Positions 1 to 13,558 of a stretch of 13,558 nucleotides of DNA are shown piece by piece. Both the position numbers and the translations under genes were made by a program. The DNA lies in IMG/VR virus record IMGVR_UViG_2690315994_000032, one strand, 5' to 3'. How positions within the stretch are numbered: the first letter of the stretch is position 1; the number at the start of each line of letters is the position of its first letter. This DNA is from a virus. Its lineage: Duplodnaviria > Heunggongvirae > Uroviricota > Caudoviricetes. The notes under the pieces are model-generated. The model ran no database searches. It was not told the origin of the DNA and saw only the letters and a program-made list of their open reading frames with translations.

Positions 1-483
1 ATGACGAAGAAAAAAGCACATAAACCTGGTTCAGCGACCATCGCGCTTAACAAGCGCGCCCGTCACGAATACTTTATTGAAGAAGAGTTCGAAGCGGGAC
101 TTGCCCTGCAAGGCTGGGAAGTTAAATCCCTGCGCGCAGGAAAAGCCAATATTAGCGACAGCTATGTCCTTCTGCGCGACGGAGAAGCGTTCCTGTTTGG
201 CGCAAACATCACGCCAATGGCTGTGGCTTCTACGCATGTGGTGTGCGATCCTACCCGTACCCGCAAGTTACTTCTCAACCAGCGCGAACTTGATTCGTTG
301 TACGGTCGCGTCAATCGAGAAGGCTATACCGTAGTGGCGCTCTCCCTGTACTGGAAAAATGCCTGGTGCAAAGTGAAAATCGGCGTCGCCAAAGGTAAGA
401 AACAGCACGATAAACGTTCAGATATCAAAGAACGCGAATGGCAGGTGGATAAAGCGCGTATCATGAAAAACGCCCACCGTTAA
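1..483 (+). CDS. smpB: SsrA-binding protein SmpB (trans-translation cofactor)
   Basis: Complete 160-aa ORF, ATG at 1 to TAA at 481-483. Translation ([48 protein letters not shown]...) is recognisable as enterobacterial SmpB, and it sits directly upstream of the tmRNA gene as in E. coli. Confidence 0.97.
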
Positions 484-697: not shown

Positions 698-1060
698 GGG
701 GCTGATTCTGGATTCGACGGGATTTGCGAAACCCAAGGTGCATGCCGAGGGGCGGTTGGCCTCGTAAAAAGCCGCAAAAAATAGTCGCAAACGACGAAAA
801 CTACGCTTTAGCAGCTTAATAACCTGCTTAGAGCCCTCTCTCCCTAGCCTCCGCTCTTAGGACGGGGATCAAGAGAGGTCAAACCCAAAAGAGATCGCGT
901 GGAAGCCCTGCCTGGGGTTGAAGCGTTAAAACTTAATCAGGCTAGTTTGTTAGTGGCGTGTCCGTCCGCAGCTGGCAAGCGAATGTAAAGACTGACTAAG
1001 CATGTAGTACCGAGGATGTAGGAATTTCGGACGCGGGTTCAACTCCCGCCAGCTCCACCA
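698..1060 (+). ncRNA. ssrA: tmRNA (transfer-messenger RNA, SsrA)
   Basis: 363-nt sequence starting GGGGCTGATTCTGGATTCGACGGG and ending GGTTCAACTCCCGCCAGCTCCACCA. It has the tRNA-like acceptor/T-arm ends and an internal tag frame, and matches the E. coli tmRNA as I recall it. Confidence 0.96.
787..819 (+). other. tmRNA tag-peptide reading frame (resume codon GCA; encodes ANDENYALAA, stop TAA)
   Basis: GCA AAC GAC GAA AAC TAC GCT TTA GCA GCT TAA read directly from the sequence inside ssrA; this is the canonical enterobacterial degradation tag. Confidence 0.9.
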
Positions 1061-1070
1061 AATAAATCAA

Positions 1071-1099
1071 GGGGTTACGTGAAAGCGTAGCCCCTTTTT
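1071..1099 (+). terminator. Rho-independent terminator downstream of ssrA
   Basis: GC-rich hairpin GGGGTTACG-tgaaag-CGTAGCCCC followed by TTTTT, 10 nt after the tmRNA 3' CCA. Confidence 0.75.
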
Positions 1100-1118
1100 C
1101 TTAGGTAGTGGCGGCAAA

Positions 1119-1157
1119 ATGGCGACAGACTTTTGCGTCCATCTTGCCTGTCGCCAT
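1119..1157. repeat. Perfect 10-bp inverted repeat ATGGCGACAG-N19-CTGTCGCCAT (candidate operator or structured leader)
   Basis: Arms at 1119-1128 and 1148-1157 are exact reverse complements, read directly. The element ends 27 bp upstream of the ATG of the 160-aa ORF. Confidence 0.5.
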
Positions 1158-1183
1158 CTTGAAATCATGCAAAGAGGTTTGAC

Positions 1184-1666
1184 ATGGAAGAACTTCACTT
1201 TGTTTACATCAATGCAAATGGTCGTATCGGTGTTCACTCAATACAGAGCATCAGTTATAGCGAAAATCACATACAGGGCATTTGTAAGAACACCGATCGA
1301 ATAAAAACCTTCCGAAAAGACCGCATTCTTAAACAATACGATTCACAAGAACAAGCCATTCAGGAATGCGCGTCATTCCTCCCCGAAAACTACTCACATC
1401 TCACTAAGCAGTCAGGTCCGAAAAAAAATACATTCGATGTGTGTTTCACCGGATTTAAGAAAGCAGATAAAGAAAGGTTGGTTGATAAGGCGAATGAACA
1501 AGGATTAACGGTAAGAACATCTGTAACCCAAAACCTTCAGATGCTCTGTTGCGGTTACAATGCAGGCCCATCAAAAGTATCGGCAGCCAGGATGAAAGGC
1601 ACTATCATCATAGATGAGCCTGGCTTTATACATTTTCTTGAAACGGGTGAGATCCCAGATGAATAA
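1184..1666 (+). CDS. Hypothetical 160-aa protein with WYL-like N-terminal and BRCT-like C-terminal domains (accessory/cargo gene at the prophage end)
   Basis: ORF with good SD (AAGAGG at 1172-1177, 6-nt spacer to ATG 1184). Visibly AT-rich compared with flanking genes. N-terminal segment YINANGRIGVHSIQSISYSENHIQGICKNTDRIKTFRKDRI fits the WYL-domain pattern; C-terminal segment FDVCFTGF...GLTVRTSVTQNLQMLCCGYNAGPSKVSAARMKGTIIIDEPGF fits a LigA-type BRCT motif. Domain calls are by motif recognition only. Confidence 0.7.
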   Translation: MEELHFVYINANGRIGVHSIQSISYSENHIQGICKNTDRIKTFRKDRILKQYDSQEQAIQECASFLPENYSHLTKQSGPKKNTFDVCFTGFKKADKERLVDKANEQGLTVRTSVTQNLQMLCCGYNAGPSKVSAARMKGTIIIDEPGFIHFLETGEIPDE

Positions 1667-1694
1667 AAACCTGCCGTAGCAGGTTCTCTTTCTT
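1665..1694. terminator. Bidirectional rho-independent terminator between convergent ORF160 and ogr
   Basis: Hairpin ACCTGC-cgta-GCAGGT (1669-1684) flanked by an A-run upstream and a T-rich run downstream, placed exactly between the two convergent stop codons. Confidence 0.6.
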
Positions 1695-1911
1695 AAAAAT
1701 TCATATGGCCCTGACCACCTGGCAATGGATGTGGAGGGGCTGTGGCAATCACTGCAGGTGTCACAATAAACCGGACCACTGTTTCATGGGTAACAAAAGT
1801 GCTCCCGCAGTTAATATTTTGGCACTGGCAGTAACGCTCTTTGGTGCTTTCTGTTACTTGAAAACTGCTCCTTGTGTGCGCCGCATGACCACACTTTGGA
1901 CAATTCATCAT
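1693..1911 (-). CDS. ogr: Ogr/Delta-family zinc-finger late-gene transcriptional activator
   Basis: Translation MMNCPKCGHAAHTRSSFQVTESTKERYCQCQNINCGSTFVTHETVVRFIVTP...PHPLPGG has the C-x2-C...C-x4-C zinc-finger arrangement and length (about 72 aa) of P2 Ogr. The six-frame ORF extends to 1956, but the MM start at 1911/1908 matches the Ogr N-terminus. Confidence 0.85.
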   Translation of the reverse strand: MMNCPKCGHAAHTRSSFQVTESTKERYCQCQNINCGSTFVTHETVVRFIVTPAVIATAPPHPLPGGQGHMNF

Positions 1912-1979
1912 ATCCAGATCCCTACCTTTGCTATCAGAATCATTGCAATGATACACAAGATATCAATATTGAGAACCAT

Positions 1980-3080
1980 TTATTCCATTTCAAGATCACT
2001 AATTTTCACTTCAAGTTCAATACTGGTCGTAAAACCGTTATCCGGGCTGACGGTATGTGTCAGAGTCGTAATGGTCCATTCCGCATCATCTATTGGCTGT
2101 TTAAAGCCACTGACCTTCACAGGCATTTCCGTGTAGAGATCTGCCCGACCTTCCGCCAGTTGTAGCGAGAATGACGCAACACCGCGTTGCAGGCGTTCCC
2201 ACTGCATTTTCGCCGCTCGTTCGGCGTTGCTCCGGTTGGCATAAGTGCGATTAAGTACCAGCACGTTTTCATCCGTCCCCACCAGATAATCGCCCTGCTT
2301 CGCTTCCGGCTCTTTCTTCTGCTTCTTAGTTCTGCGCTTACGCTTCACCGTGGTGCTTTCTTTCTTCGCGGGTTCGCGGGTATGCAACCAGCTGGCAATG
2401 ACGCCCGTATAGGCTCCGCGATCTGCCAGGGTAAAGCGGTGACTGTCGCCGTCCTTACGCGTGATAGTGATCACCGGCAGTGGTTTACCGCTGGCGCTTT
2501 TGCCCTGTCCCTGCCGGATGAATAACAGATTGCCATTTTTCACCGATGCAATAGCACCGTACTGGCGCGCCAGTCGCATCAGAAAACTGCCGTCACTCTC
2601 ATTGGTCTGGTCTATATGTTCCACGGGTTTATCTGACAGGTCTTTACCCAATGCCATCTTCAGTTTGTGCCGTGCAGCTATTTCCTTCACCACTTCCCCA
2701 ACGGTGGTCTTGTGCCACGACTTTTCACGGCGGGTATTCAGCGTTTCACGAAAATCAGCACTTCGCGCCCGGATAGTCAGGCGGTCCGGTGCGCCAGTGT
2801 GTTCAATCTCGTCCACCGTGAATGCCCCTTTCGGGAAAAGCGGCTGCCCCTTCCAGCCCAGCGCCAGCGTAATAACCGCACCACGGCGCGGCAGCACGAT
2901 TTTTCCGTCGGCGTCGTCCAGCTCCAGATCAAGCTGGTCTGCTTCAAAGCCCCGATTGTCCGTCAGCGTCAAACTCATCAGGCGGTTATCCAGCACAGTG
3001 GTGATATCCCTGCCCTCAATACTGATGCTGAATGCGGGAGTTTTGTTGCCTTTGTTAAGCAGTTCAGAGCTGAAATTCAC
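1980..3080 (-). CDS. D: Phage late control / tail protein D (P2 gpD family)
   Basis: 366-aa ORF at the position and orientation expected after U in P2 synteny. Start is GTG at 3080-3078, overlapping the U stop as GTGA, with GGGAGGG SD upstream. Family assignment by recall of gpD-like sequence features. Confidence 0.85.
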   Translation of the reverse strand: MNFSSELLNKGNKTPAFSISIEGRDITTVLDNRLMSLTLTDNRGFEADQLDLELDDADGKIVLPRRGAVITLALGWKGQPLFPKGAFTVDEIEHTGAPDRLTIRARSADFRETLNTRREKSWHKTTVGEVVKEIAARHKLKMALGKDLSDKPVEHIDQTNESDGSFLMRLARQYGAIASVKNGNLLFIRQGQGKSASGKPLPVITITRKDGDSHRFTLADRGAYTGVIASWLHTREPAKKESTTVKRKRRTKKQKKEPEAKQGDYLVGTDENVLVLNRTYANRSNAERAAKMQWERLQRGVASFSLQLAEGRADLYTEMPVKVSGFKQPIDDAEWTITTLTHTVSPDNGFTTSIELEVKISDLEME

Positions 3081-3562
3081 GACAGCAGCCCTCCCACCGT
3101 TTTACTGATATCGCTTAAGGCAGACGTTGCCGTGTCCTGCAGATTATTCAGTTGCGCACTGAGATCACCGAACATATCGGACAGGGATTCATCCACCCGT
3201 TTGAGCGACAGGGTGAACTCAATCCGGCGCGGCATACCGTCGCGGAAAAACTCCGTTTTAGTCTGATTCAGTCCCTCAATCACATACATGCCGTAAATCG
3301 TGCCGCTGCCTTCAATCAGGGGCCATGCTTTCCCCTGTTCTGCCATCTGCTCCAGTACCAGCAACGACAGCCTGCCGCCTGTTATCTCCGGCATAAGAAC
3401 ACCAGAAAGCGTCAGCATGTCGTTGTCCGGTCCCAGAAACTGCGTGGACGGACGTCGGTTGACCCGGCTGTTTGCCGCATGTCGCCAGCTGCGTTGATAC
3501 TGCAGTTCCTGATACGGCACAGTGCGCAGCATAAACACGTACAATCCCAGCACCATCATCAT
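3077..3562 (-). CDS. U: Phage tail protein U (P2 gpU family)
   Basis: 161-aa ORF starting MMMVLGLYVFMLRTVPYQELQ, typical of P2 gpU. ATGA overlap with the T stop; located between T and D. Confidence 0.88.
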   Translation of the reverse strand: MMMVLGLYVFMLRTVPYQELQYQRSWRHAANSRVNRRPSTQFLGPDNDMLTLSGVLMPEITGGRLSLLVLEQMAEQGKAWPLIEGSGTIYGMYVIEGLNQTKTEFFRDGMPRRIEFTLSLKRVDESLSDMFGDLSAQLNNLQDTATSALSDISKTVGGLLS

Positions 3563-6500
3563 GCGTCGTATCCCCCCTGATCGCTGTAGTTACTCCTGGC
3601 TTTTGCCTTCAGCCTGCGTTCACGTTCATCAAGCTGGCGTGCCACCTCCCGCGCAATATCCTGCGCACTTTGTCCTGGCTGCGTCTGGATGATGATCTGC
3701 GTCGGTGCCTCAATCCGTTGAGCGGGCGGCACAGTGGCTGCACGACTCACCATCGCTTCGCCGCCTTTCGCGGGAAGTGCCAAAGGATGTAACGGCGGAA
3801 GCTCTGCAGGCGCGGCAGCAACGCCCATCATTCCGGCAACAACGGCAGCCAGTGCAGCTGTATTTCTCCGACTGGTCACGTTTGCCGGACCGTTGACAAT
3901 TTCAGGCCCGTTTTCACCGACAATGCCGAACTGCCCGCGCGGGATATAGCCGCCGCTGTCATACATCCCCGCAAAGCCATATCCCCATGACGGAAAACCA
4001 CCCGATGGCATCATCACTTTACCGTCTGCATTCACCGTCGCAGGTTGCTGACGCGTCACGCTTTCCGGCAGTTTCGCCTTTGCAGCCTCTTTACTGACAA
4101 TACCGAGTTTCTCCAGCAACCAGGAAACGCCGGATTTCAGGGAGTCCAACGGATGCATGACCATATTCAGCCCTTCCGCCAGTGCCTCCCCGAATCGTCG
4201 CCCCATTGCCGCTGCGCTCTGCAGTTCGGCAGAGGTCGACTTAACAGGCGTCAGCAGATCAGTAAACCAGCCCCACAACGCCTGTACTTTGTCGCCAATC
4301 CACTGGAACACGGGCTTAAGCGGTTCGAATGCAGCACTGATGGGACCTGCCGCCGCTTTGAATCCTTCCACCACGCCACCGAGAAATGCGGTGATGGGTT
4401 GCCAGTATTTCCAGACAACCAGCGCCACGCCCGCCAGTGCAGTAACCACAAGACCTATCGGACTGAGCAGAGCACCTAACAGACCAGATACGGCATACAG
4501 GGCAACGCGCAGCATCGCCAGCGGACCGGATGCCAGCACACGCAGCACCGCGCCTGCGGCAGCCAGTCCACCGCGTAGTGCTGCCAGTGGATTCATAAAC
4601 ATCACAGCAACCGCACGTAAACCGGATAATCCAGACCGCAACAGTGCAACCGGCACACCTGCTACAGTTTTCAGGACATTCCCCGTCAGTGATGCGGTGC
4701 GGCGCAAAGACGACAACGGCGCAGTAAGTAAACCCGCTGCGTTGCCCGATGAAGCAAGCCCGCGTCGCAGCAGTGCCAGTGGAGCGCCAGCTAACCAGGA
4801 CAACGCGCTGCTGGTTCGTGTTACTGCTGCCGTAACGGAAGGTAACGTTTTGATACCCAGCACAGAGAATCCCAGACGGATGACTGCCAGCGGCCCCAGC
4901 ACTGCAGCCAGCGCCACCGCTAAGGTGCCGAGGCCTACGGTAACCGCAGCCACAACAGCCGCTACTTTCATCAGTGTGCCTGTCAGTTCCGGGTTAGCTT
5001 CCACCCAGCGGCGCAACGCCCCCGTGATGCTTTTTACCGTGTACAGAATATCCATCAGCGGCTGGCGCAGCGTTTCGCCCAGGCTGCTGAAGGTGTTCTG
5101 CGCTCCGGTTTTGACCAGCAACCACTGAGCGGAAAGTGAGTCTTTGTTGATGTCGGATTCTTTCTGCATGGAACCGAGCGCATCATTGCCCGCTGTCAGT
5201 TTTAGCTGGCGCTGCAGTTCCGGAAGGTTGTTTGCCAGTTTCGCTGCATCATCACCAAACTCTTTACCAAACAACATGGTCATGGCAGACAGACGCTTGT
5301 CCTGCGGCAGTGCGTTCACCTTCTCCAGCACACGCTGGATAGTTCCCATCGCATCCTTCGTCATCTGCTTTTCAATCACTTCAGGATTGAGTTTCAGCAG
5401 ATTCATCCCTTCAAAGAAACTCTTACTTTGCATGGTGGCAATGGACAATTCACGCACCATCGCGTTTGCTGCACTGGCAGCAACCTCCGGCGCAGCGCCC
5501 AGTGTCAGGAAGGTGGAACCCAGCGCCGCCGCTTTACGATAATCCAGACGATCTGCCACACCGCCCAGGCGTTGCATGACATCAATGATGTCTGACCCTT
5601 TCGACATGGCGTTATCATCCAGATAGTTCAGCGCATCACCGAGCTGTTCAATATTGCGGGTAGGGATTTTGTAGAGCTGGGCGATTTTCCCCAGACTTTC
5701 TGACAGTTCATCCGCTGGCAGCTCAAAGGCTGTTGCCGCCTTTGCTGCCGTGCTGGCGAAGGCCAGCAGGTCACGTTTCTGGTCTTCCCAGCTGTCGTCA
5801 GGATTTGCGACGTTCATGCGCGCACCACCTTCAACCAGTGCGGCAAAGTCCACAGCACCGTTTTCCATCGGCAACTGTTCGCTGGCAGCCTTGATGGCAT
5901 CCTGCATTTCGTAAAAACGCGCAGTGCGGTTGCCATTATCATCACGCAGACCATTGACCTGCTTTGCCACACCTTTCATGGCATCTTCCATGCTGGTATA
6001 GCTTTTTACTGCTGCCATCACTGGCGCACCCATTGCCAGCCCTGCAGCCGTGGTAGTGGCTCCGGCTCCTGCGATGCGATCGCGCACTTCAAGCCGTCTT
6101 GAGTATTGTTCTCTGGCAGCGTTCATCCGTGCCTGTTGTTCACCCAGACGTTTAAGTGCTTTTTGCTGGCCCTCCAGTGCCTGCCTTGTTTCTTCAGCAT
6201 TTTTCTTAAGTTCTCGCTGGGCACTACTGAGTTGTCTGGTATCAATCCCTGATTCTTTAAGTGCCTGACGTTGTCTCTGGACCGCCCCCAACAAGCCGTT
6301 ATAGGTCTGCTGAAGTTCCTGTACTCGTGTTTTGGCCTGACTGAATAACTTTGCCTGCGCGGCGGTTGGCCTGTTAGTGGCAGCAAATTGTGTGGCGAGT
6401 TTTGCCGCCTCTTCGCGGGCTGCGTTCAGGTTGTTGGCTGTTATGGCTAGTTGCGAGCGCGTCTTGCGAAATTCATCAATTCTGCCAGCCTGCTTATTCA

Positions 6501-6636
6501 GTTCTTTGAGGCTGTTTCGGGTATACTGAATTGCGCCAGCCAGCTCTTTCGAACTGGCCTGTGCAACACGGAATGGGCGGGTGAGTTTGTCAACCGCATT
6601 AAGAATGACCTGCAGCCGCAGGTTGTTATCACTCAT
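3559..6636 (-). CDS. T: Tail tape measure protein (P2 gpT family)
   Basis: 1025-aa ORF. N-terminal half is coiled-coil-like (Q/A/K/E/R-rich heptad-like sequence), the central and C-terminal part carries hydrophobic Gly/Ala/Leu-rich repeats (…ALLRRGL…, …ALLRSGL…) and a GYGFAGMYDSGGYIPRGQFGIVGENGPE motif. Lies between E/E' and U. Confidence 0.9.
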   Translation of the reverse strand: MSDNNLRLQVILNAVDKLTRPFRVAQASSKELAGAIQYTRNSLKELNKQAGRIDEFRKTRSQLAITANNLNAAREEAAKLATQFAATNRPTAAQAKLFSQAKTRVQELQQTYNGLLGAVQRQRQALKESGIDTRQLSSAQRELKKNAEETRQALEGQQKALKRLGEQQARMNAAREQYSRRLEVRDRIAGAGATTTAAGLAMGAPVMAAVKSYTSMEDAMKGVAKQVNGLRDDNGNRTARFYEMQDAIKAASEQLPMENGAVDFAALVEGGARMNVANPDDSWEDQKRDLLAFASTAAKAATAFELPADELSESLGKIAQLYKIPTRNIEQLGDALNYLDDNAMSKGSDIIDVMQRLGGVADRLDYRKAAALGSTFLTLGAAPEVAASAANAMVRELSIATMQSKSFFEGMNLLKLNPEVIEKQMTKDAMGTIQRVLEKVNALPQDKRLSAMTMLFGKEFGDDAAKLANNLPELQRQLKLTAGNDALGSMQKESDINKDSLSAQWLLVKTGAQNTFSSLGETLRQPLMDILYTVKSITGALRRWVEANPELTGTLMKVAAVVAAVTVGLGTLAVALAAVLGPLAVIRLGFSVLGIKTLPSVTAAVTRTSSALSWLAGAPLALLRRGLASSGNAAGLLTAPLSSLRRTASLTGNVLKTVAGVPVALLRSGLSGLRAVAVMFMNPLAALRGGLAAAGAVLRVLASGPLAMLRVALYAVSGLLGALLSPIGLVVTALAGVALVVWKYWQPITAFLGGVVEGFKAAAGPISAAFEPLKPVFQWIGDKVQALWGWFTDLLTPVKSTSAELQSAAAMGRRFGEALAEGLNMVMHPLDSLKSGVSWLLEKLGIVSKEAAKAKLPESVTRQQPATVNADGKVMMPSGGFPSWGYGFAGMYDSGGYIPRGQFGIVGENGPEIVNGPANVTSRRNTAALAAVVAGMMGVAAAPAELPPLHPLALPAKGGEAMVSRAATVPPAQRIEAPTQIIIQTQPGQSAQDIAREVARQLDERERRLKAKARSNYSDQGGYDA

Positions 6637-7065
6637 CGTTGGCCCCGCTTCTCTGAATCGCTTTATACCGCCATTCCAGCACTTCGGTCAGCGGCATAAC
6701 GTCAGTAACGGATGGCGGCCAGTGAAAGATGGTGGCGATATCAGCCACCAGATCGTCAACCGTCAGGCTGTCGGTAAACCGGCAAGCACCGACTTCTTCA
6801 ACAAAAAAGTGACAACCTCAACCGACATGGCAGTGAGATCTGCCGGGTCCATCTCTGCAATTTCCTGTGCAGTCAGTGCCGGACTGGAGATACGGGGGAT
6901 CACGGTCATCATCGCGTTCACATCCATATCCATAATGGCCTGCAGGCGTGTACCGCGCAGCGCACCGGACTGCGGTTTACGCAGCACAATTTCGGTGATT
7001 TCTGTTTTACCGCGCTTGATGGGAGTATCCAGTTGAATAGTCTTTTCAGTCTGCTTATCGCTCAT
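6629..7065 (-). CDS. E+E': Tail assembly chaperone E+E' made by programmed -1 ribosomal frameshift
   Basis: Hand translation of the -1 frame from the slippery site gives 58 stop-free codons (VEEVGACRFTDSLTVDDLVADIATIFHWPPSVTDVMPLTEVLEWRYKAIQRSGANDE) ending at TGA 6631-6629, just before the T start codon. Same architecture as P2 E/E'. Confidence 0.75.
6763..7065 (-). CDS. E: Tail assembly chaperone E (P2 gpE family), zero-frame product
   Basis: 100-aa ORF with AGGA SD upstream of ATG 7065, located between FII and T. Contains the slippery heptamer near its 3' end. Confidence 0.85.
   Translation of the reverse strand: MSDKQTEKTIQLDTPIKRGKTEITEIVLRKPQSGALRGTRLQAIMDMDVNAMMTVIPRISSPALTAQEIAEMDPADLTAMSVEVVTFLLKKSVLAGLPTA
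6802..6808 (-). other. Slippery heptamer T-TTT-TTG for the E/E' -1 frameshift
   Basis: Minus-strand TTTTTTG (plus-strand CAAAAAA at 6802-6808) in the zero frame of E, read directly. Confidence 0.75.
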
Positions 7066-7119
7066 TTTGCTGTCCTGTAAATTGGGTTCTGGCGCGGTAT
7101 CCCGCGCCGTTCAGATACA

Positions 7120-7635
7120 TCAGAGGCCGAGGGCGTTGCGGTGCGCTTCCATCAGGTCCACACCGTCCACAATTTCCACCATGTTGATAAGGTCCACTTC
7201 ATAGAGCACCTCACCATTGATGGTCAGCTTCGCGTAGCTGTTGGTACTGGTCACTTTGGTGGTGTTGCTTTCGCCCGTCTTCCACTCGCCGGAATCCACT
7301 TCTTTGTGACGTCCCAGCACCACAAGCTCCACGGCCTGCACTTCCCCGGTATCGTCACGCTGGATAGAGCCGGTAAAGCGCAGCTGAATGCCATCTACCG
7401 TGGCTTTGCCCATCTGCTTAAACAGCAGCAGTTCAGTACCACCAATGGAAAATTCTGTGTCCAGCGCACTGTCATCAAGCCCCAGATCCACATCCACTGC
7501 ACCCGGCATTCCGCCGCCGCGATACTTCTCATATTTGCGGGTGAATTTCGGCAGCGTCAGCGACTCAACGATCCCCTGCCAGTTGTTCCCGTCGTTAAAC
7601 AGGTTCAGATGTTTTAATTTGCGTGGTAAAGCCAT
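7120..7635 (-). CDS. FII: Tail tube protein (P2 gpFII family)
   Basis: 171-aa ORF beginning MALPRKLKHLNLFNDGNNWQG, immediately downstream of FI in the same orientation. Confidence 0.9.
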   Translation of the reverse strand: MALPRKLKHLNLFNDGNNWQGIVESLTLPKFTRKYEKYRGGGMPGAVDVDLGLDDSALDTEFSIGGTELLLFKQMGKATVDGIQLRFTGSIQRDDTGEVQAVELVVLGRHKEVDSGEWKTGESNTTKVTSTNSYAKLTINGEVLYEVDLINMVEIVDGVDLMEAHRNALGL

Positions 7636-7644
7636 GTTGTCCCC

Positions 7645-8817
7645 TTACGCGCTGACCTGGCTGGCGAAATTCACCAGGTACTGATCGGTGATGCGCTGGC
7701 GCAGCATCAGATTTTCAAGTGGCGGCACTGGCGTGTAGTCATAGTCGATGGTGAGTTTTCCGGCTTTCAGCGTGTCTTTGTCGTTCACCGACTCATCCAG
7801 CCAGCAATCACCACCAATGAGATAGCCCTGACTGACCAGGCTGCGTATTTTGGCGCGGATACCTTCGATAATGTCGCGGGCCAGCGACGGGTTAAGCGGT
7901 TTATCCACCGCCCACATGTGTGCTTCTGCCATTGTGTCCGTCAGCACCTGCGCCGTGCGGGTGTAGTTTTCGAAGGCAAAAAGCGGATCATCGCTCAGAC
8001 AGCGGGAACCCCAGAAGCGGAAACCGTCTTTACGCACAAGCGTGGTGACGTCGTTCTGGTTCAGCAGACCTGCATCGGTTGCCGGGTCCTGCAGATCCCA
8101 GAACACATCTGCAGAAATTCCGGTGACACCGTTCACGCCCACGTTGGACAGGCTTTTGTGCCACCCGGTCTGCTCATCAATTTTGGCACGCAGACCAAGT
8201 GCACGGGCGGTGGCATATGCCGTTGCTTCGGCATTCAGCACCGTGTCCCAGCCAGTAAAGTCGGGCCAGATCAGCATTCCTTCGCGCTGGCTGAAGTTTT
8301 CACGGTAAGTGATCTCCTCCTGTACCGTCTTGCAGCCATACGCTGACAGGTAAGCAAACCCACGCAGGCTTTGCGCCACGCTCAGCAACTCAGTCGCAAC
8401 GGCTTTGTTATCGTGACCTGGCACGCCGAGAATGCGCGGTTTAACGCCGAGCTGTGACTGGGCAGATAACAGAGCTTTCATGCCTGTTTTTTTACCTTCA
8501 GCAGTCACTGCGCCGATGATATTGGTCGTGGTTTCTTCTTCCGTTTCACCCTGCGGCACACGCACAACAACGGTCACGGGTTTTGCCTGGTCAGCGATGG
8601 CATCCAGCGAACGGGCCAGCGTGCCGGACTCACCCGCTTTACCGCTGGCAGTCAGCACATCAGTGATCAGCACAGGTTTGTTAAGAGGAAACATTTTTGC
8701 ATCGGCATCATCGCCCGTGCAGACCATGCCCACGATGGCGGTGCTCACCGTGGTAATGGATCGGGTGCCTTCGTTGACTTCAACAACGCGCACCCCGTGG
8801 TGGTAATCCTGAGCCAT
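7645..8817 (-). CDS. FI: Contractile tail sheath protein (P2 gpFI family)
   Basis: 390-aa ORF beginning [21 protein letters not shown]; perfect AGGAGG SD upstream of ATG 8817. First gene of the FI-FII-E-T-U-D block. Confidence 0.92.
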
Positions 8818-8893
8818 AGTGGCGAACCTCCTGATTGGATTAGGCTTCGCCCTATGTTGAAGTGATTGTGCCTGACAAACAGCTAAGCGCAGT

Positions 8894-8911
8894 TGTACCG
8901 TTATTCACACA
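8894..8911 (-). promoter_or_regulatory. Candidate Ogr-dependent late promoter element (TGT-N12-ACA dyad) upstream of FI
   Basis: Minus-strand TGTGTGAATAACGGTACA, read directly, about 80-95 bp upstream of the FI start. P2-family late promoters carry a TGT-N12-ACA activator site centred near -55. Confidence 0.55.
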
Positions 8912-8959
8912 AAATGACGGTATTTGTCTACTTGCAGGGATAATCAAAATAATGCTGAT

Positions 8960-9526
8960 TCAGGGGGATTCATTACTCTTATTTGCCGGAAATTTTCTAT
9001 AAATTGTGGAAACACCCACATCAAAAATCAGTGCAATACGCTGTCTTGATTCTCCGGCCTCGAGTAAACGCCCAATCTGTGCCCACTGTTCGGTGGTCAA
9101 CTTAGGACGGCGTCCACCTACTCTGCCTTTGGCACGAGCTGCAGCCAGCCCTGCCCTGGTACGTTCAACTATCAGTTCGCGTTCCATTTCAGCCAGGGCA
9201 CCCATGACATGAAAAAAGAAACGGCCCATTGGGGTACTGGTATCAATACTGTCAGTCAGGCTTCGGAAATTCACACCACGCTGGCGCAACTCCTCTATCA
9301 GCGTAACAAGATGCCGCATACTGCGCCCCAACCTGTCCAGCTTCCAGACAACCAGCGTGTCTCCTGCCGATAGTGTCCTGAGCAGCTTTTTCAGCCCCGG
9401 TCTGTCGGACTTAGTGCCACTGATTTTATCCTCAAAAATCCGCTCACATCCCGCGCAGTTCAGTGCATTACGTTGCAAATCGGTGTTCTGGTCATTTGTT
9501 GACACGCGTACATAGCCAATAAGCAT
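8960..9526 (-). CDS. pin: Serine DNA invertase, Hin/Gin/Pin family
   Basis: Translation MLIGYVRVSTNDQNTDLQRNALNCAGCERIFEDKISGTKSDRPGLKKLLRTLSAGDTLVVWKLDRLGRSMRHL... has the resolvase/invertase catalytic N-terminus (serine in YVRVST) and a C-terminal HTH, closely resembling e14 Pin. The six-frame ORF starts at 9532 (MIM…); ATG 9526 has better SD spacing (GGGGGA, 5 nt). Confidence 0.93.
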   Translation of the reverse strand: MLIGYVRVSTNDQNTDLQRNALNCAGCERIFEDKISGTKSDRPGLKKLLRTLSAGDTLVVWKLDRLGRSMRHLVTLIEELRQRGVNFRSLTDSIDTSTPMGRFFFHVMGALAEMERELIVERTRAGLAAARAKGRVGGRRPKLTTEQWAQIGRLLEAGESRQRIALIFDVGVSTIYRKFPANKSNESP

Positions 9527-9581
9527 GATCATCCCCCTGAATAAAAACCGGAGATGATGCCAGTTAGCCGTTATCTCTGCA

Positions 9582-9607
9582 TTTTCATAAACGTTGGTTT
9601 GGGAGAA
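9582..9607. other. 26-bp gix/pix-like invertase crossover site A (TTTTCATAAACG-TT-GGTTTGGGAGAA), immediately upstream of pin
   Basis: Imperfect 12-bp inverted half-sites around a 2-bp core, resembling the Hin-family consensus (TTATCnAAAACC-core-GGTTTTnGATAA). Shares an identical 15-bp stretch TTGGTTTGGGAGAAG with site B in gene H. Confidence 0.7.
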
Positions 9608-9651
9608 GATGAACCGCCCCGGTTTTCCTGGAGAGTGTTTTATCTGTGAAC

Positions 9652-10539
9652 TCAGGCTGCCAGATCATCGTTTCTGATGGAAGCATAATAAGCTTTTTCT
9701 GCTTCTGCCGGAGGGATATGACCCAGCCTTCCCAGCAATCGTCGATTGTTATACCAGTCCACCCACGTGAGTGTGGCCAGTTCCACTTCTGCACGGTTTT
9801 TCCAGCTCTTACGGTGTATTACCTCCGCTTTGTAAAGACCATTGATGCTCTCCGCCATCGCGTTGTCATACGAGTCACCTGTACTCCCTGTTGATGCCAG
9901 CAGTTTTGCTTCTTTTAGTCGCTCCGTATAGGCCAGTGATACATACTGAGAACCTTTATCACTGTGATGGACTGTGCCGGACGGCCGACGGGCCCACAAC
10001 GCCTGCTCCAGTGCATCCAGCACGAATGTCGTTTCCATAGACGATGAGACTCGCCACCCCACGATGCATCCGGCAAACACATCAATGATGAACGCCACAT
10101 AGACGAAGCCCTGCCATGTGCTGACGTAAGTAAAATCAGCCACCCACAGCTGGTCAGGACGTTCTGCCACGAACTGACGGTTTACGCGGTCGCCTGCGGA
10201 AACGGCTTTCCGGCTGACGGTAGTACGGACCTTTTTACCCCGGAGAACACCGGCAAGTCCCATAACCGCCATGAGGCGCGCCACTGTACATCTGGCCACC
10301 CTGATACCTTCGCGTAACAACTGGCGCCAGACTTTACGCACACCGTACACCTGATGATTTTCATCGTATACGCGCTGTATCTCTCTCTTCAGCCAGTCAT
10401 CGCGCTGCGCACGGGCACTGCGTTTATCAGGATGATGTCGCTGTTGCTGACAGTGGTAATACGTTGACGGGGCAATATGCAGTTCACTGCATACCGGTCC
10501 GACCCCGTACTGCTCACGCAGCTTATCCAGCAGTGGCAT
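9652..10539 (-). CDS. IS629 OrfB (DDE transposase catalytic subunit)
   Basis: 295-aa ORF with an integrase-core pattern (…WVADFTYV…, …HHSDKGSQY…, …DNAMAESINGLYKAE…). Its ATG overlaps the OrfA stop as TAATG, next to an A6 run, so an OrfAB fusion by frameshift is expected. Confidence 0.88.
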   Translation of the reverse strand: MPLLDKLREQYGVGPVCSELHIAPSTYYHCQQQRHHPDKRSARAQRDDWLKREIQRVYDENHQVYGVRKVWRQLLREGIRVARCTVARLMAVMGLAGVLRGKKVRTTVSRKAVSAGDRVNRQFVAERPDQLWVADFTYVSTWQGFVYVAFIIDVFAGCIVGWRVSSSMETTFVLDALEQALWARRPSGTVHHSDKGSQYVSLAYTERLKEAKLLASTGSTGDSYDNAMAESINGLYKAEVIHRKSWKNRAEVELATLTWVDWYNNRRLLGRLGHIPPAEAEKAYYASIRNDDLAA

Positions 10540-10865
10540 TATTTTTTCCAGAGGCGGTCGAACTCCGCCTTCGCAAAATAAGCGGAAGCCTGGCGAAGGA
10601 TATCGTTACTGCGGCGCAGTTCACGATTTTCACGTTCCAGCTCTTTCAGACGCTGACGTTCAGCGGTGGTGAATCCACCATCACCACTCCCGGTATCCCG
10701 CTCATGCTGACGAACCCACACACGCAGAGTCTCTGGCGTACAGCCAATCTTTGGGGCAATGGAACAAATTGCCGCCCATTGTGAGTCATATTCGCCCTGA
10801 CTTTCCAGAACCATACGAACTGCCCGTTGACGGACCTCGGGGGAAAAACGTGTATTTTTAGTCAT
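10539..10865 (-). CDS. IS629 OrfA (HTH transposase subunit)
   Basis: 108-aa ORF with HTH region and leucine-zipper-like C-terminus ([25 protein letters not shown]), typical of IS3-family OrfA. Confidence 0.88.
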
Positions 10866-10920
10866 CCTGTTTACCTCTTTCTCAGGGAGTTTAGTCTCCA
10901 GGATTCCCGGGGCGGTTCAC

Positions 10921-11403
10921 AGCTTCCTGCCTTATCTCGCCTGGGCGTTCTCTGTGGATCGCTGGGACGAGGGCTGGACAGAAAGCGTCAAACGCCAGGT
11001 AGTGAAGGATGCTTTTTATATTCATCAGCATAAAGGAACTACCAGTGCCGTGCGGCGGGTGGTGGAACCGTTCGGATTCCTGATCCGCATTATTGAGTGG
11101 TGGCAGACCGGAGAAACACCGGGCACGTTTCGCCTGGATATCGGCGTGCAGGACCAGGGCATCACTGAAGATACCTATCTGGAACTTGAGCGGCTGATAA
11201 GCGATGCCAAACCATGTAGCCGTCACATGATCGGCATGTCCATCAATCTGCAGACCAGCGGTCCGCATTGGGTGGGGGCCGCCAGCTATCTTGGCGAAGA
11301 AATCACGATCTATCCGTATATCAACGAAACAATTATTTCCGGCGGCACCGCGCATGAAGGCGGGGCGGTCCATGTTATTGACACAATGAGAGTGAATCCA
11401 TGA
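10921..11403 (+). pseudogene. I: Baseplate assembly protein I (P2 gpI family), 5'-truncated by IS629
   Basis: The reading frame is open from the first base after the IS end (SFLPYLAWAFSVDRWDEGW…) with no in-frame start upstream; the six-frame ORF begins only at an internal GTG (10954). The translation resembles the gpI region …LLPWLAWAFSVDRWDE… as I recall it, so the N-terminus is missing. Stop overlaps the H start as ATGA. Confidence 0.75.
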
Positions 11404-12956
11404 GCACAAAATTTTATACCCTGCTGACGGATATTGGCGCGGCGAAACTTGCCAGCGCCGCCGCGCTCGGTGTGCCGCTAAAAATTACCCATATGGCGGT
11501 GGGCGATGGCGGCGGAACATTGCCAACGCCGGACGCCAAGCAGACAGCATTGGTAAATGAGAAACGCCGGGCTGCGCTGAATATGCTCTATATCGACCCG
11601 CAGAACAGCAGCCAGATTATTGCTGAACAGGTGATCCCTGAAAACGAGGGCGGTTGGTGGATACGTGAAGTGGGCCTGTTTGATGAGTCCGGGGCATTGA
11701 TTGCCGTGGGCAACTGCCCGGAAAGCTATAAGCCGCAACTGGCTGAAGGCAGCGGGCGTACCCAGACCGTGCGCATGGTGCTGATTACCAGCAGCACGGA
11801 CAATATCACCCTGAAAATCGACCCTGCCGTAGTGCTGGCAACCCGCAAGTATGTGGATGACAAGGTACTGGAGCTGAAGGTGTACGTGGATGATCAGATG
11901 GCAAAACATCTTGCCGCACCGGACCCGCATTCACAGTATGCACCCAAAGAAAGTCCGACGTTTACCGGGACACCAAAAGCGCCAACTCCAGCGGCAGGGA
12001 ATAACACCACGCAGGTTGCGACCACCGCGTTTGTTCAGGCGGCACTGACGGCTCTTATTAATGGTGCGCCAGCCACGCTGGACACGCTGAAAGAAATAGC
12101 CGCAGCCATTAACAATGATCCGAATTTCAGTACCACCATTAACAATGCGCTGGCACTGAAAGCGCCGTTGTCGAGTCCGGCACTCACCGGAACGCCAACA
12201 GCCCCCACTGCTGCACAGTCGGTCAACAATACACAGATTGCCACCACGGCTTTTGTGAAATCGGCGATTGCAGCAATGGTAGGTTCTGCACCTGCGGCAC
12301 TGGATACACTGAACGAACTGGCGTCGGCGTTGGGGAATGATCCGAACTTTGCCACGACAATGCTTAATGCGCTGGCAGGTAAACAACCGCTGGACAATAC
12401 GCTGACTAATTTGAGTGGAAAGGATGTCGCTGGTCTTCTCGCATACCTTGGTTTGGGAGAAGGTTCTGCATTACCCGTTGGTGTGCCTGTTCCGTGGCCT
12501 TCCGCCACTCCGCCAACAGGCTGGCTGAAATGCAACGGTGCGGCTTTTTCTGCTGAAGAATACCCGGAACTGGCAAAGGCTTACCCGACCAATAAATTGC
12601 CTGATTTACGCGGTGAATTTATTCGTGGCTGGGATGACGGTCGCGGGATTGATACTGGTCGCGCTTTGCTTAATTGGCAGCCACACACAATTTTGGACCA
12701 TGCACACTATATGGAATTATGGACAGGGGACGGACTCGCCGCAGGAAGTGCACGGGAAGGAGTAAACCCAGGAATACTGGCTACATACGGTGACGGGGGA
12801 ATAGTTAAAACGGACGAACCCGGTCTTAAGGTGCCTTCCTCACTACGAGCTATTAGCTCTCGTAGTGTTAAACGTTATGGTGAAATTAGTGAAAATGTAG
12901 GTACAGAAACTCGTCCTCGTAACATCGCTTTTAATTATATTGTGAGGGCCGCATGA
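11400..12956 (+). CDS. H: Tail fibre protein (P2 gpH-like N-terminus; C-terminal tail-collar/receptor-binding module)
   Basis: 518-aa ORF. N-terminus MSTKFYTLLTDIGAAKLASAA…MAVGDGGG… is gpH-like. Middle has two tandem copies of the conserved fibre repeat (…TGTP.APT…NNTQ.ATTAFV…LDTL.E.A.A..NDPNF.TT..NALA.K.PL). C-terminus has collar motifs (GWLKCNGAAFSAEEYPELAKAYP…LPDLRGEFIRGWDDGRGID). Confidence 0.9.
   Translation: MSTKFYTLLTDIGAAKLASAAALGVPLKITHMAVGDGGGTLPTPDAKQTALVNEKRRAALNMLYIDPQNSSQIIAEQVIPENEGGWWIREVGLFDESGALIAVGNCPESYKPQLAEGSGRTQTVRMVLITSSTDNITLKIDPAVVLATRKYVDDKVLELKVYVDDQMAKHLAAPDPHSQYAPKESPTFTGTPKAPTPAAGNNTTQVATTAFVQAALTALINGAPATLDTLKEIAAAINNDPNFSTTINNALALKAPLSSPALTGTPTAPTAAQSVNNTQIATTAFVKSAIAAMVGSAPAALDTLNELASALGNDPNFATTMLNALAGKQPLDNTLTNLSGKDVAGLLAYLGLGEGSALPVGVPVPWPSATPPTGWLKCNGAAFSAEEYPELAKAYPTNKLPDLRGEFIRGWDDGRGIDTGRALLNWQPHTILDHAHYMELWTGDGLAAGSAREGVNPGILATYGDGGIVKTDEPGLKVPSSLRAISSRSVKRYGEISENVGTETRPRNIAFNYIVRAA
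11952..12395 (+). repeat. Tandem duplication (2 x about 222 bp, 74 aa) inside tail-fibre gene H
   Basis: Two successive units starting AGTCCGACGTTTACCGGGACACC (11952) and AGTCCGGCACTCACCGGAACGCC (12174), encoding SPTFTGTPKAPT… and SPALTGTPTAPT… with roughly 60% protein identity by eye. Unit boundaries are approximate. Confidence 0.6.
12436..12461. other. 26-bp gix/pix-like invertase crossover site B (TTCTCGCATACC-TT-GGTTTGGGAGAA) inside gene H at the constant/variable junction
   Basis: Same architecture as site A; right half-site and TT core are identical to site A. Encodes …LAYLGLGEG…, immediately before the collar/receptor-binding C-terminus, matching the Sc/Sv junction position in Mu/P1/e14-type switches. 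Confidence 0.7.
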
Positions 12957-13558
12957 TGAATAAAGCTGTATTAAATAGCGAACTCATTGCCATAAAAGCG
13001 GGAGATATTACCGTTTATAATTATGATGGTGAAACGCGGGAATATATTTCTACATCAACTGAATATCTCGCTGTCGGCGTCGGTATCCCGGCATGTTCCT
13101 GTCTGGATGCACCAGGTACACATAAAGCTGGTTATGCAATCTGTCGCTCTGTAGATTTAAATTCATGGGAATATGTGCCAGACCATCGCGGTGAAGTTGT
13201 CTATAGTACCGAAACGGGAGATACCAAAGAAATCACAGTTCCGGGTGATTACCCTGAAAATACAACCACTATCGCCCCATTAACGCCATACGATAAATGG
13301 GATGGTGAGAAATGGGTGACGGATACCGAGGCACAGCATAGCGCCGCACTAGACGCGGCAGAAGTAAAGCGCCAGTCGCTGATTGATGCTGCAATGGCTT
13401 CCATCAGTCTGATTCAACTGAAATTACAGGCCGGGCGGAAGCTGACGCAGCCAGAAAACACCCGACTTAACGCTGTGCTGGATTATATTGACGCGGTGAC
13501 GGCAACAGATACCAGCACAGCGCCGGACGTCATCTGGCCTGAACTGCCGGAGGCGTAG
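12953..13558 (+). CDS. G: Tail fibre assembly chaperone (P2 gpG / Mu U / Tfa family)
   Basis: 201-aa ORF with ATGA overlap to the H stop and GAGGG SD. The C-terminal region (…QSLIDAAMASISLIQLKLQAGRKLTQPENTRLNAVLDYIDAVTATDTSTAPDVIWPELP) is the conserved Tfa chaperone motif. The stop codon is the last 3 bases of the window. Confidence 0.88.
   Translation: MMNKAVLNSELIAIKAGDITVYNYDGETREYISTSTEYLAVGVGIPACSCLDAPGTHKAGYAICRSVDLNSWEYVPDHRGEVVYSTETGDTKEITVPGDYPENTTTIAPLTPYDKWDGEKWVTDTEAQHSAALDAAEVKRQSLIDAAMASISLIQLKLQAGRKLTQPENTRLNAVLDYIDAVTATDTSTAPDVIWPELPEA

Follow-up and report, generated by a model that had tools for sequence, protein, structure and literature searches.

Exchanged IS629 flanks and a possible inversion of the tail gene block in a degraded P2-like prophage at ssrA of Escherichia coli

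The stretch of DNA analysed here in full, referred to as the window (13,558 nucleotides, IMG/VR record IMGVR_UViG_2690315994_000032), covers smpB, the tmRNA gene ssrA and a P2-like prophage located at ssrA (Table 1), which is also the prophage site in TOK-001 and 2020N21-246-1. The late genes are 99.5% identical to those of the annotated TOK-001 prophage, and their Pfam labels were taken from the relatives L002 and L003. The Pfam families, the gene order in these two relatives and a DNA identity of 99.5-99.9% place the prophage in the P2-like (Peduovirinae-type) group. Its H gene consists of a constant part fused to the Hv' variable end; the intact prophages L002 and L003, which were obtained by exact look-up of this 518-aa protein, encode an identical H. 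Between ssrA and ogr lies a cargo ORF of 160 aa (1184-1666, plus strand) that is annotated as hypothetical. It has a match to a BRCT domain that stays below threshold (E 9e-4) and shows similarity to the C-terminal part of PDC-S48, a PADLOC candidate (E 1.7e-7). At the same position, the related prophage L014 has a reverse-transcriptase gene.

Table 1. Features of the 13,558-nucleotide window and the basis on which each was assigned.
Feature	Coordinates	Strand	Basis
smpB, chromosomal flank	1..483	+	position and annotation same in TOK-001
ssrA tmRNA, prophage attachment site	698..1060	+	ARAGORN tmRNA, tag ANDENYALAA
P2-like late genes ogr, D, U, T, E/E', FII, FI	1693..8817	-	ORFs, relatives
pin-type serine invertase, intact	8960..9532	-	Resolvase N-terminal domain (2.3e-53) and HTH_7
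pin-proximal pix crossover site, 26 bp	9582..9607	-	exact match to TTCTCCCAAACCAACGTTTATGAAAA
base 9609, N in the public record, scaffold join of pix and IS	9609..9609	.	sole difference from CYBJ01000038.1
IS629, O55:H7-type variant	9610..10919	-	IRR left, IRL right; orfB 9652-10539, orfA 10539-10865
gene I without its first 41 codons, starting CAG	10920..11403	+	alignment to intact I genes
tail fibre gene H, 518 aa	11400..12956	+	Phage_tail_fib and Collar domains
distal pix site inside H	12436..12462	+	repeat search; as drawn, in direct orientation to the proximal site
tail fibre assembly gene G'	12953..13558	+	Caudo_TAP domain

The order in which these genes are drawn differs from that of the intact relatives. 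In TOK-001 the 99.5%-identical prophage at ssrA has the order pin, (Hv' G' / G Hv), H, I, J, W, V, and in L002 and L003 the genes run J-I-H-G'-G(-)-Hv(-)-pix-pin-FI...D-ogr. To the left of the IS element the window agrees with L003 at 8629 of 8640 bases and to the right of it at 2638 of 2639 bases, the latter in the opposite relative orientation. As L003 matches on both sides, both halves of the window derive from one prophage, in which I'-H-G' is reversed relative to pin and against the P2-like order I-H-G...FI-FII-E-T-U-D-ogr. The preliminary description of this DNA had allowed that related intact phages might show the divergent order natively; the intact P2-like prophages at ssrA have instead the colinear P2 order, and judging by these alignments the order drawn in the window is not native. 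When the whole window and both of its IS junctions were compared with 5,426 complete E. coli genomes, neither the arrangement nor the junctions were found in any of them.

The element at the point of divergence is an IS629, a member of the IS3 family for which the names IS1203 and IS3411 are synonyms. It occupies 9610-10919 and, as had been proposed, is a 1310-bp element with both terminal inverted repeats in place (25 nt, arms 88% complementary, beginning TGAACCGCCCC), and it has the size of about 1.3 kb and the TGAACCGCCCC termini by which IS3-family elements are recognized. Both of its genes, orfA (HTH_Tnp_1) and orfB (rve/HTH_21), are intact, and their overlap carries the GAAAAAAT motif (an A6 slippery site) of a -1 frameshift, which agrees with RefSeq copies of the element that are annotated with a programmed frameshift. 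Over its full length the window copy is 100% identical to an annotated IS3-family copy in the O55:H7 strain DEC5E, and it differs from the O157-type IS1203 at 58 positions. It has been reported that the IS629 types differ by 55-60 bp and that O55:H7 carries type II (Rump et al. 2011, PMC3271280), and the window copy fits this published split both in its distance to IS1203 and in its identity to the O55:H7 copy. Like the IS629 elements of E. coli O157:H7 and O55:H7 prophages in its 1310 bp, its termini and its orfA and orfB, the element itself is ordinary; only its flanks have been exchanged.

IS629 favours prophage DNA and makes duplications of 3-4 bp, although matching duplications were found at only 21 of 47 IS629 sites and more than half of the sites in O157 genomes are unmatched (PMC3271280). 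At other sites, the very IS present in the window is bounded by clean 3-bp duplications (GAC, CAC, CTT/AAG), as expected of simple insertions, and it is these that make the absence of a duplication in the window meaningful. Here the flanks are (N)/GAAG on one side and CAG on the other, and the two sites lie 3.4 kb apart.

At the right junction the IS terminus reads ...GGCGGTTCA/CAGCTTCCTGCC. Alignment to intact I genes, which read ...CCGGT CAG CTTCC, showed that the CAG is native to gene I and that exactly 122 nt (41 codons) are missing from the window gene. The remaining frame is open from 10921, and the Tail_P2_I profile is matched only from position 38 of 139, bearing out the earlier claim that gene I abuts the IS without its N-terminus. 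Breaks in gene I were also seen in at least six other degraded P2-like prophages (L004, L006, L008, L010, L013 and L021), where they fall within a 22-nt stretch (L003 9504-9526), some 40-50 nt upstream of the 149-aa I' ORF. The partners to which gene I is joined there differ (terminase, portal, gpA or D), three of these prophages have the same boundary, GG/TACCTG, and the microhomology is 1-2 nt. This clustering is probably best explained by ascertainment, as only breaks within a stretch of about 57 nt give the exact 149-aa ORF.

The left junction proved to be of another kind. Exact look-up of the truncated I' ORF led to contig CYBJ01000038.1 of assembly GCA_001284825.1, to which positions 954-13558 of the window correspond at 12,604 of 12,605 bases; the sole mismatch falls on base 9609, where the window has A but the public record has N. 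An A as the native allele was found in none of 709 complete E. coli genomes with this Hv allele (best match 99.2%), and the A of the window seems to fill in for a gap in the assembly. Because of this N, the adjacency of pix and IS is a scaffold join and not read sequence. The contig passes from the IS into I' seamlessly yet has an N at the other IS end, which counts against reading the I'-H-G' block as inverted in the isolate. Two earlier statements have to be revised in part. Of the flanks AGA and CAG, between which no duplication had been recognized, CAG stands as native gene I sequence, whereas the last A of AGA is the N; and the IS had been placed 2 bp from pix, where a perfect pix does lie at 9582-9607 but the base-level adjacency depends on the scaffold join. 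Exact pattern scans for pix/IS, IS/I' and Hv/IS joins gave no matches in species-representative genomes or in JGI metagenomes.

The sequence of the proximal pix (9582-9607) had no match in 200 shuffles, and the pattern search returned this site as the only full match, with the second site (12436-12462) inside H. The region is conserved in every relative up to GGGAGAAG; all relatives agree as far as ...TTGGTTTGGGAGAAG and then split into their own Hv alleles, and in the window a single additional A precedes the IS. In intact relatives the two pix sites are inverted. In the window, as drawn, they are direct repeats, as had been noted before, and they become so through the reversal of I'-H-G'. 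Serine invertases require inverted crossover sites, and with direct repeats as drawn the Pin switch would be disabled. Like the Din-family switches Pin of e14, Gin of Mu and Cin of P1, the window has an intact serine invertase and 26-bp sites, and the alternative H C-termini and paired assembly genes of such switches are also found in P2-like prophages, with the native layout seen in L001-L003. Unlike those switches, the window lacks, as drawn, the pair of inverted sites, has the IS and gene I' between its sites and has an assembly gene G that is split by an IS.

The evidence for the split in gene G lies to the right of the window. CYBJ01000038.1 runs 228 bp further, through 126 bp of the 3' end of gene G that are colinear with L003 and then into IS629, ending ...CCATT/TGAACCGCCCCGGGTTTCC. 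This is the IRR of a second IS629 copy, located in gene G and in the same orientation as the window copy. Its 102 available bases (12732-12833 of the contig) are identical to IS1203 and differ from the window copy at positions 14 and 66, and the contig stops inside it. It had been predicted that a second IS629, the inverted partner of the first, would be found to the right. A copy is indeed there, but it is an independent one, in direct orientation and with an ATT duplication of its own, and it is not the predicted partner.

In order to recover the missing junctions, read-through peptides were predicted for all combinations of duplication and IS end and were then looked up exactly, and 2 of the 10 predicted junction peptides were found to exist. 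One is the 54-aa peptide I(1-41)+S(AG/T)+EPPRFSWRVFYL (CTU06124.1/WP_064761587.1, from an E. coli contig of 27.3 kb, annotated as "phage tail protein I"), which corresponds exactly to the I N-terminus followed by CAG and an IRR of the window IS subtype. It is the reciprocal junction that had been anticipated at the missing 5' end of gene I, with the same IS subtype and on another contig. The other, G(1-96)-LNRPGNPGD (CTU15019.1, on a contig of 739 bp), is an exact match to the N-terminus of G joined to an IRL through ATT. Peptide variants without the duplication, with the wrong IS end, or with an O157-type IRR on I were absent from the protein collection.

These matches, together with the junctions already in hand, allow both duplications to be put together. 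The halves of ATT on both sides mark the copy in G as a simple insertion (ATT/IS/ATT), and the halves of CAG indicate that the IS in gene I likewise began as a simple insertion (CAG/IRR...IRL/CAG), of which the IRL half is seen in the window. The possibility that I'-H-G' was carried between two direct IS copies as a composite transposon was therefore dropped, as the CAG and ATT halves belong to two separate simple insertions. Since I(N)-CAG-IRR was found, two IRR ends of the window IS subtype must exist; one adjoins pix, through the N, and the other adjoins I(N)-CAG. The 635-bp G(N)-Hv piece stands alone on its 739-bp contig, and so must be bounded by repeats at either end. In all, three IRR junctions (at pix, G(C) and I(N)) and two IRL junctions (at I(C) and G(N)) were counted, and from this tally the free end of the G(N)-Hv piece should carry a third IRL. 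Seven edge-partial variants of a Hv-end junction peptide were absent from the collection, while start-codon variants of 109 and 99 aa occurred on many unrelated contigs and were uninformative. An attempt to derive the k-mer size of the assembler from the contig ends was given up, as the value implied by the 102 nt of IS disagrees with that implied by the 739-bp contig.

Taken together, it is very probable that the locus holds two inverted IS629 copies of the same subtype that bracket the block from I' to Hv, with the tally of IS ends suggesting how the second copy is oriented relative to the window. Whether recombination between these copies has truly inverted the block in the isolate is, in our estimation, an evenly balanced matter. 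In the model that we propose, an IS629 copy of the O55:H7 type would have entered gene I, duplicating CAG, and a second copy of the same subtype, in the opposite orientation, would have settled at the inner edge of the pin-proximal pix, while a third, of the O157 type, would have interrupted the tail-fibre assembly gene G, with duplication of ATT. The block I'-H-G'-G-Hv of about 3.4 kb, with the third IS aboard, could then have been flipped, most likely by homologous recombination between the inverted copies of the same subtype. The exchange would swap the flanks, such that the window IS comes to have pix next to its IRR and CAG-I' next to its IRL, while the other exchanged copy would connect the Hv end with CTG-I(N-terminus)-J-W-V, read on the minus strand. 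The distal pix would be turned along with the block, giving the direct repeats that Pin cannot invert. The simplest chain under this model would be pin-pix-(IS1)-I'-H-G'-G(C)-(IS2)-G(N)-Hv-(IS3, inverted)-I(N)(-)-J(-)...

The four junction sequences around a pair of identical inverted repeats do not depend on which way the enclosed DNA points. Given this shared set of junctions, the N at the pix join and a repeat of 1.3 kb, a short-read scaffold cannot decide the orientation of the block. Thus, of the IS-mediated inversion put forward in the preliminary description, the two inverted copies of the same subtype are very probably as predicted but the physical inversion is not secured, on account of the N join and of junctions that are the same either way. 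The further claim that the prophage is defective holds, since the baseplate gene I and the assembly gene G are both split. The proposed event resembles the inversions between IS or prophage repeats in E. coli chromosomes in its probable brackets of two inverted copies of one IS and in that the halves of the CAG duplication are split between copies; it differs from the chromosomal inversions in its small span, about 4.7 kb within one prophage, in its putative second duplication pair and in a physical orientation that this assembly does not prove.

The strongest competing account involves no inversion at all. IS629 would have entered the prophage three times by simple insertion, into I, into G and at the edge of pix, leaving the native order as it was, and the assembler would have mis-threaded the identical inverted copies, joining the pix flank of one to the I' flank of the other. 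We regard this as a real but somewhat doubtful possibility. It would explain why the N stands exactly at the join of pix and IS, and CAG-IRR on I(N) with IRL-CAG on I(C) is the pattern of an undisturbed simple insertion; moreover, the junction set would be the same in both states, and the complete genome of 2020N21-246 has the unflipped layout pin-pix-IS-Hv-G-G'-H-I. On the other hand, among the contigs listed none links I(N)-IS-I(C), and among the listed contigs that have the 149-aa I' ORF the IS occurs only in the arrangement pix-IS-I'. The flipped state is also equally plausible a priori, and recombination between inverted repeats of 1.3 kb separated by about 4.7 kb is to be expected in a RecA+ host.

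It might also be supposed that the pix join is spurious, that no IS lies at pix, that the prophage has insertions in I and G only, and that misleading read pairs led to the pin-pix contig being attached to the IS-I' contig. The N at the join would fit such an error, as would the presence of other E. coli pin regions with a nearby IS629 that could mislead the mapping of pairs. We consider it improbable, since a single simple IS in I should give one contig J-I(N)-IS-I(C)-H, whereas I(N)-CAG-IRR and I(C) are found on separate contigs, and G(N)-Hv lies on its own 739-bp contig and does not continue into pix-pin. In addition, the left contig ends exactly where an independent insertion of an IS629-family element is documented.

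A single step of intramolecular replicative transposition, in which both ends of the IS in gene I attack the pix edge, inverting the DNA between and making the second copy, would yield the same end structure, with CAG on both halves and a new copy of the same subtype in inverted orientation. Although structure alone cannot separate this from an insertion followed by homologous recombination, transposition in the IS3 family follows a copy-out/paste-in route via a circular intermediate, which does not invert the flanking DNA, and we hold the one-step route to be very unlikely. Finally, a rearrangement made by Pin between pix and a secondary site, brought to mind by the intact pin that adjoins the junction and by the evident activity of Pin in flipping an IS-carrying segment of a related prophage, is effectively refuted on base-level grounds, as the right breakpoint coincides exactly with the IS629 terminus (10919/10920) at a native CAG, with no pix-like sequence there, and the pattern search gave one full pix match, the second site being inside H.

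Returning to the arrangement with an IS at the pix edge, on which the favoured model of two inverted copies depends, we have found a precedent in the complete genome of 2020N21-246, which reads GGGAGAAG/IS1203/AAG..., the IS standing at exactly this edge of pix and being flanked by a clean duplication of AAG. This makes the scaffolded junction of pix and IS biologically plausible. In both 2020N21-246 and 2020N21-246-1 the IS1203 occupies the same nucleotide as the window junction, after GGGAGAAG, and the prophage is of the same kind and also located at ssrA, but the IS is of the other subtype (95.6% identity to the window IS) and in the opposite orientation, has the AAG duplication and lies in a prophage of native order. 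The differences in IS subtype, orientation and strain indicate that the pix-edge insertions in the window and in 2020N21-246 are independent events. In the two sister strains (L019 7115-8515 and L014 28010-29410) one has the IS at the pin-proximal pix and the other has it at the distal pix in H, from which we infer that Pin flipped the IS-carrying segment.

One could speculate that IS629-family elements prefer the inner edge of Din-invertase crossover sites as a target, for example because the DNA there is bent or bound by the invertasome, and if true such a preference would link the target choice of a transposase to a site-specific recombination site. We think this unlikely. IS629-family copies were also seen at other positions in or near pin and the invertible segment of e14-like elements, in MS 119-7 and in O157:H7 DEC4E (L017 3523-5535; L018 2199-5722). 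The pin genes and invertible tail-fibre segments appear to be frequent landing places for IS elements.

For work of this kind, the locus shows that a short-read scaffold does not suffice for calling an inversion between identical inverted IS copies, and that a flank taken as evidence of "no duplication" may hang on a single base for which the source assembly has N. The approach of predicting the read-through peptide of a missing junction and looking it up exactly, by which junctions on other contigs were recovered, is reusable. An IS-bracketed inversion is a textbook outcome, and the accumulation of IS629, exchanged flanks and small IS-bracketed inversions are already well documented in defective E. 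coli prophages. The prophage is dead in either orientation, and the biological weight of its exact arrangement is small; inverted or not, the locus is a case of routine, IS-driven prophage decay.
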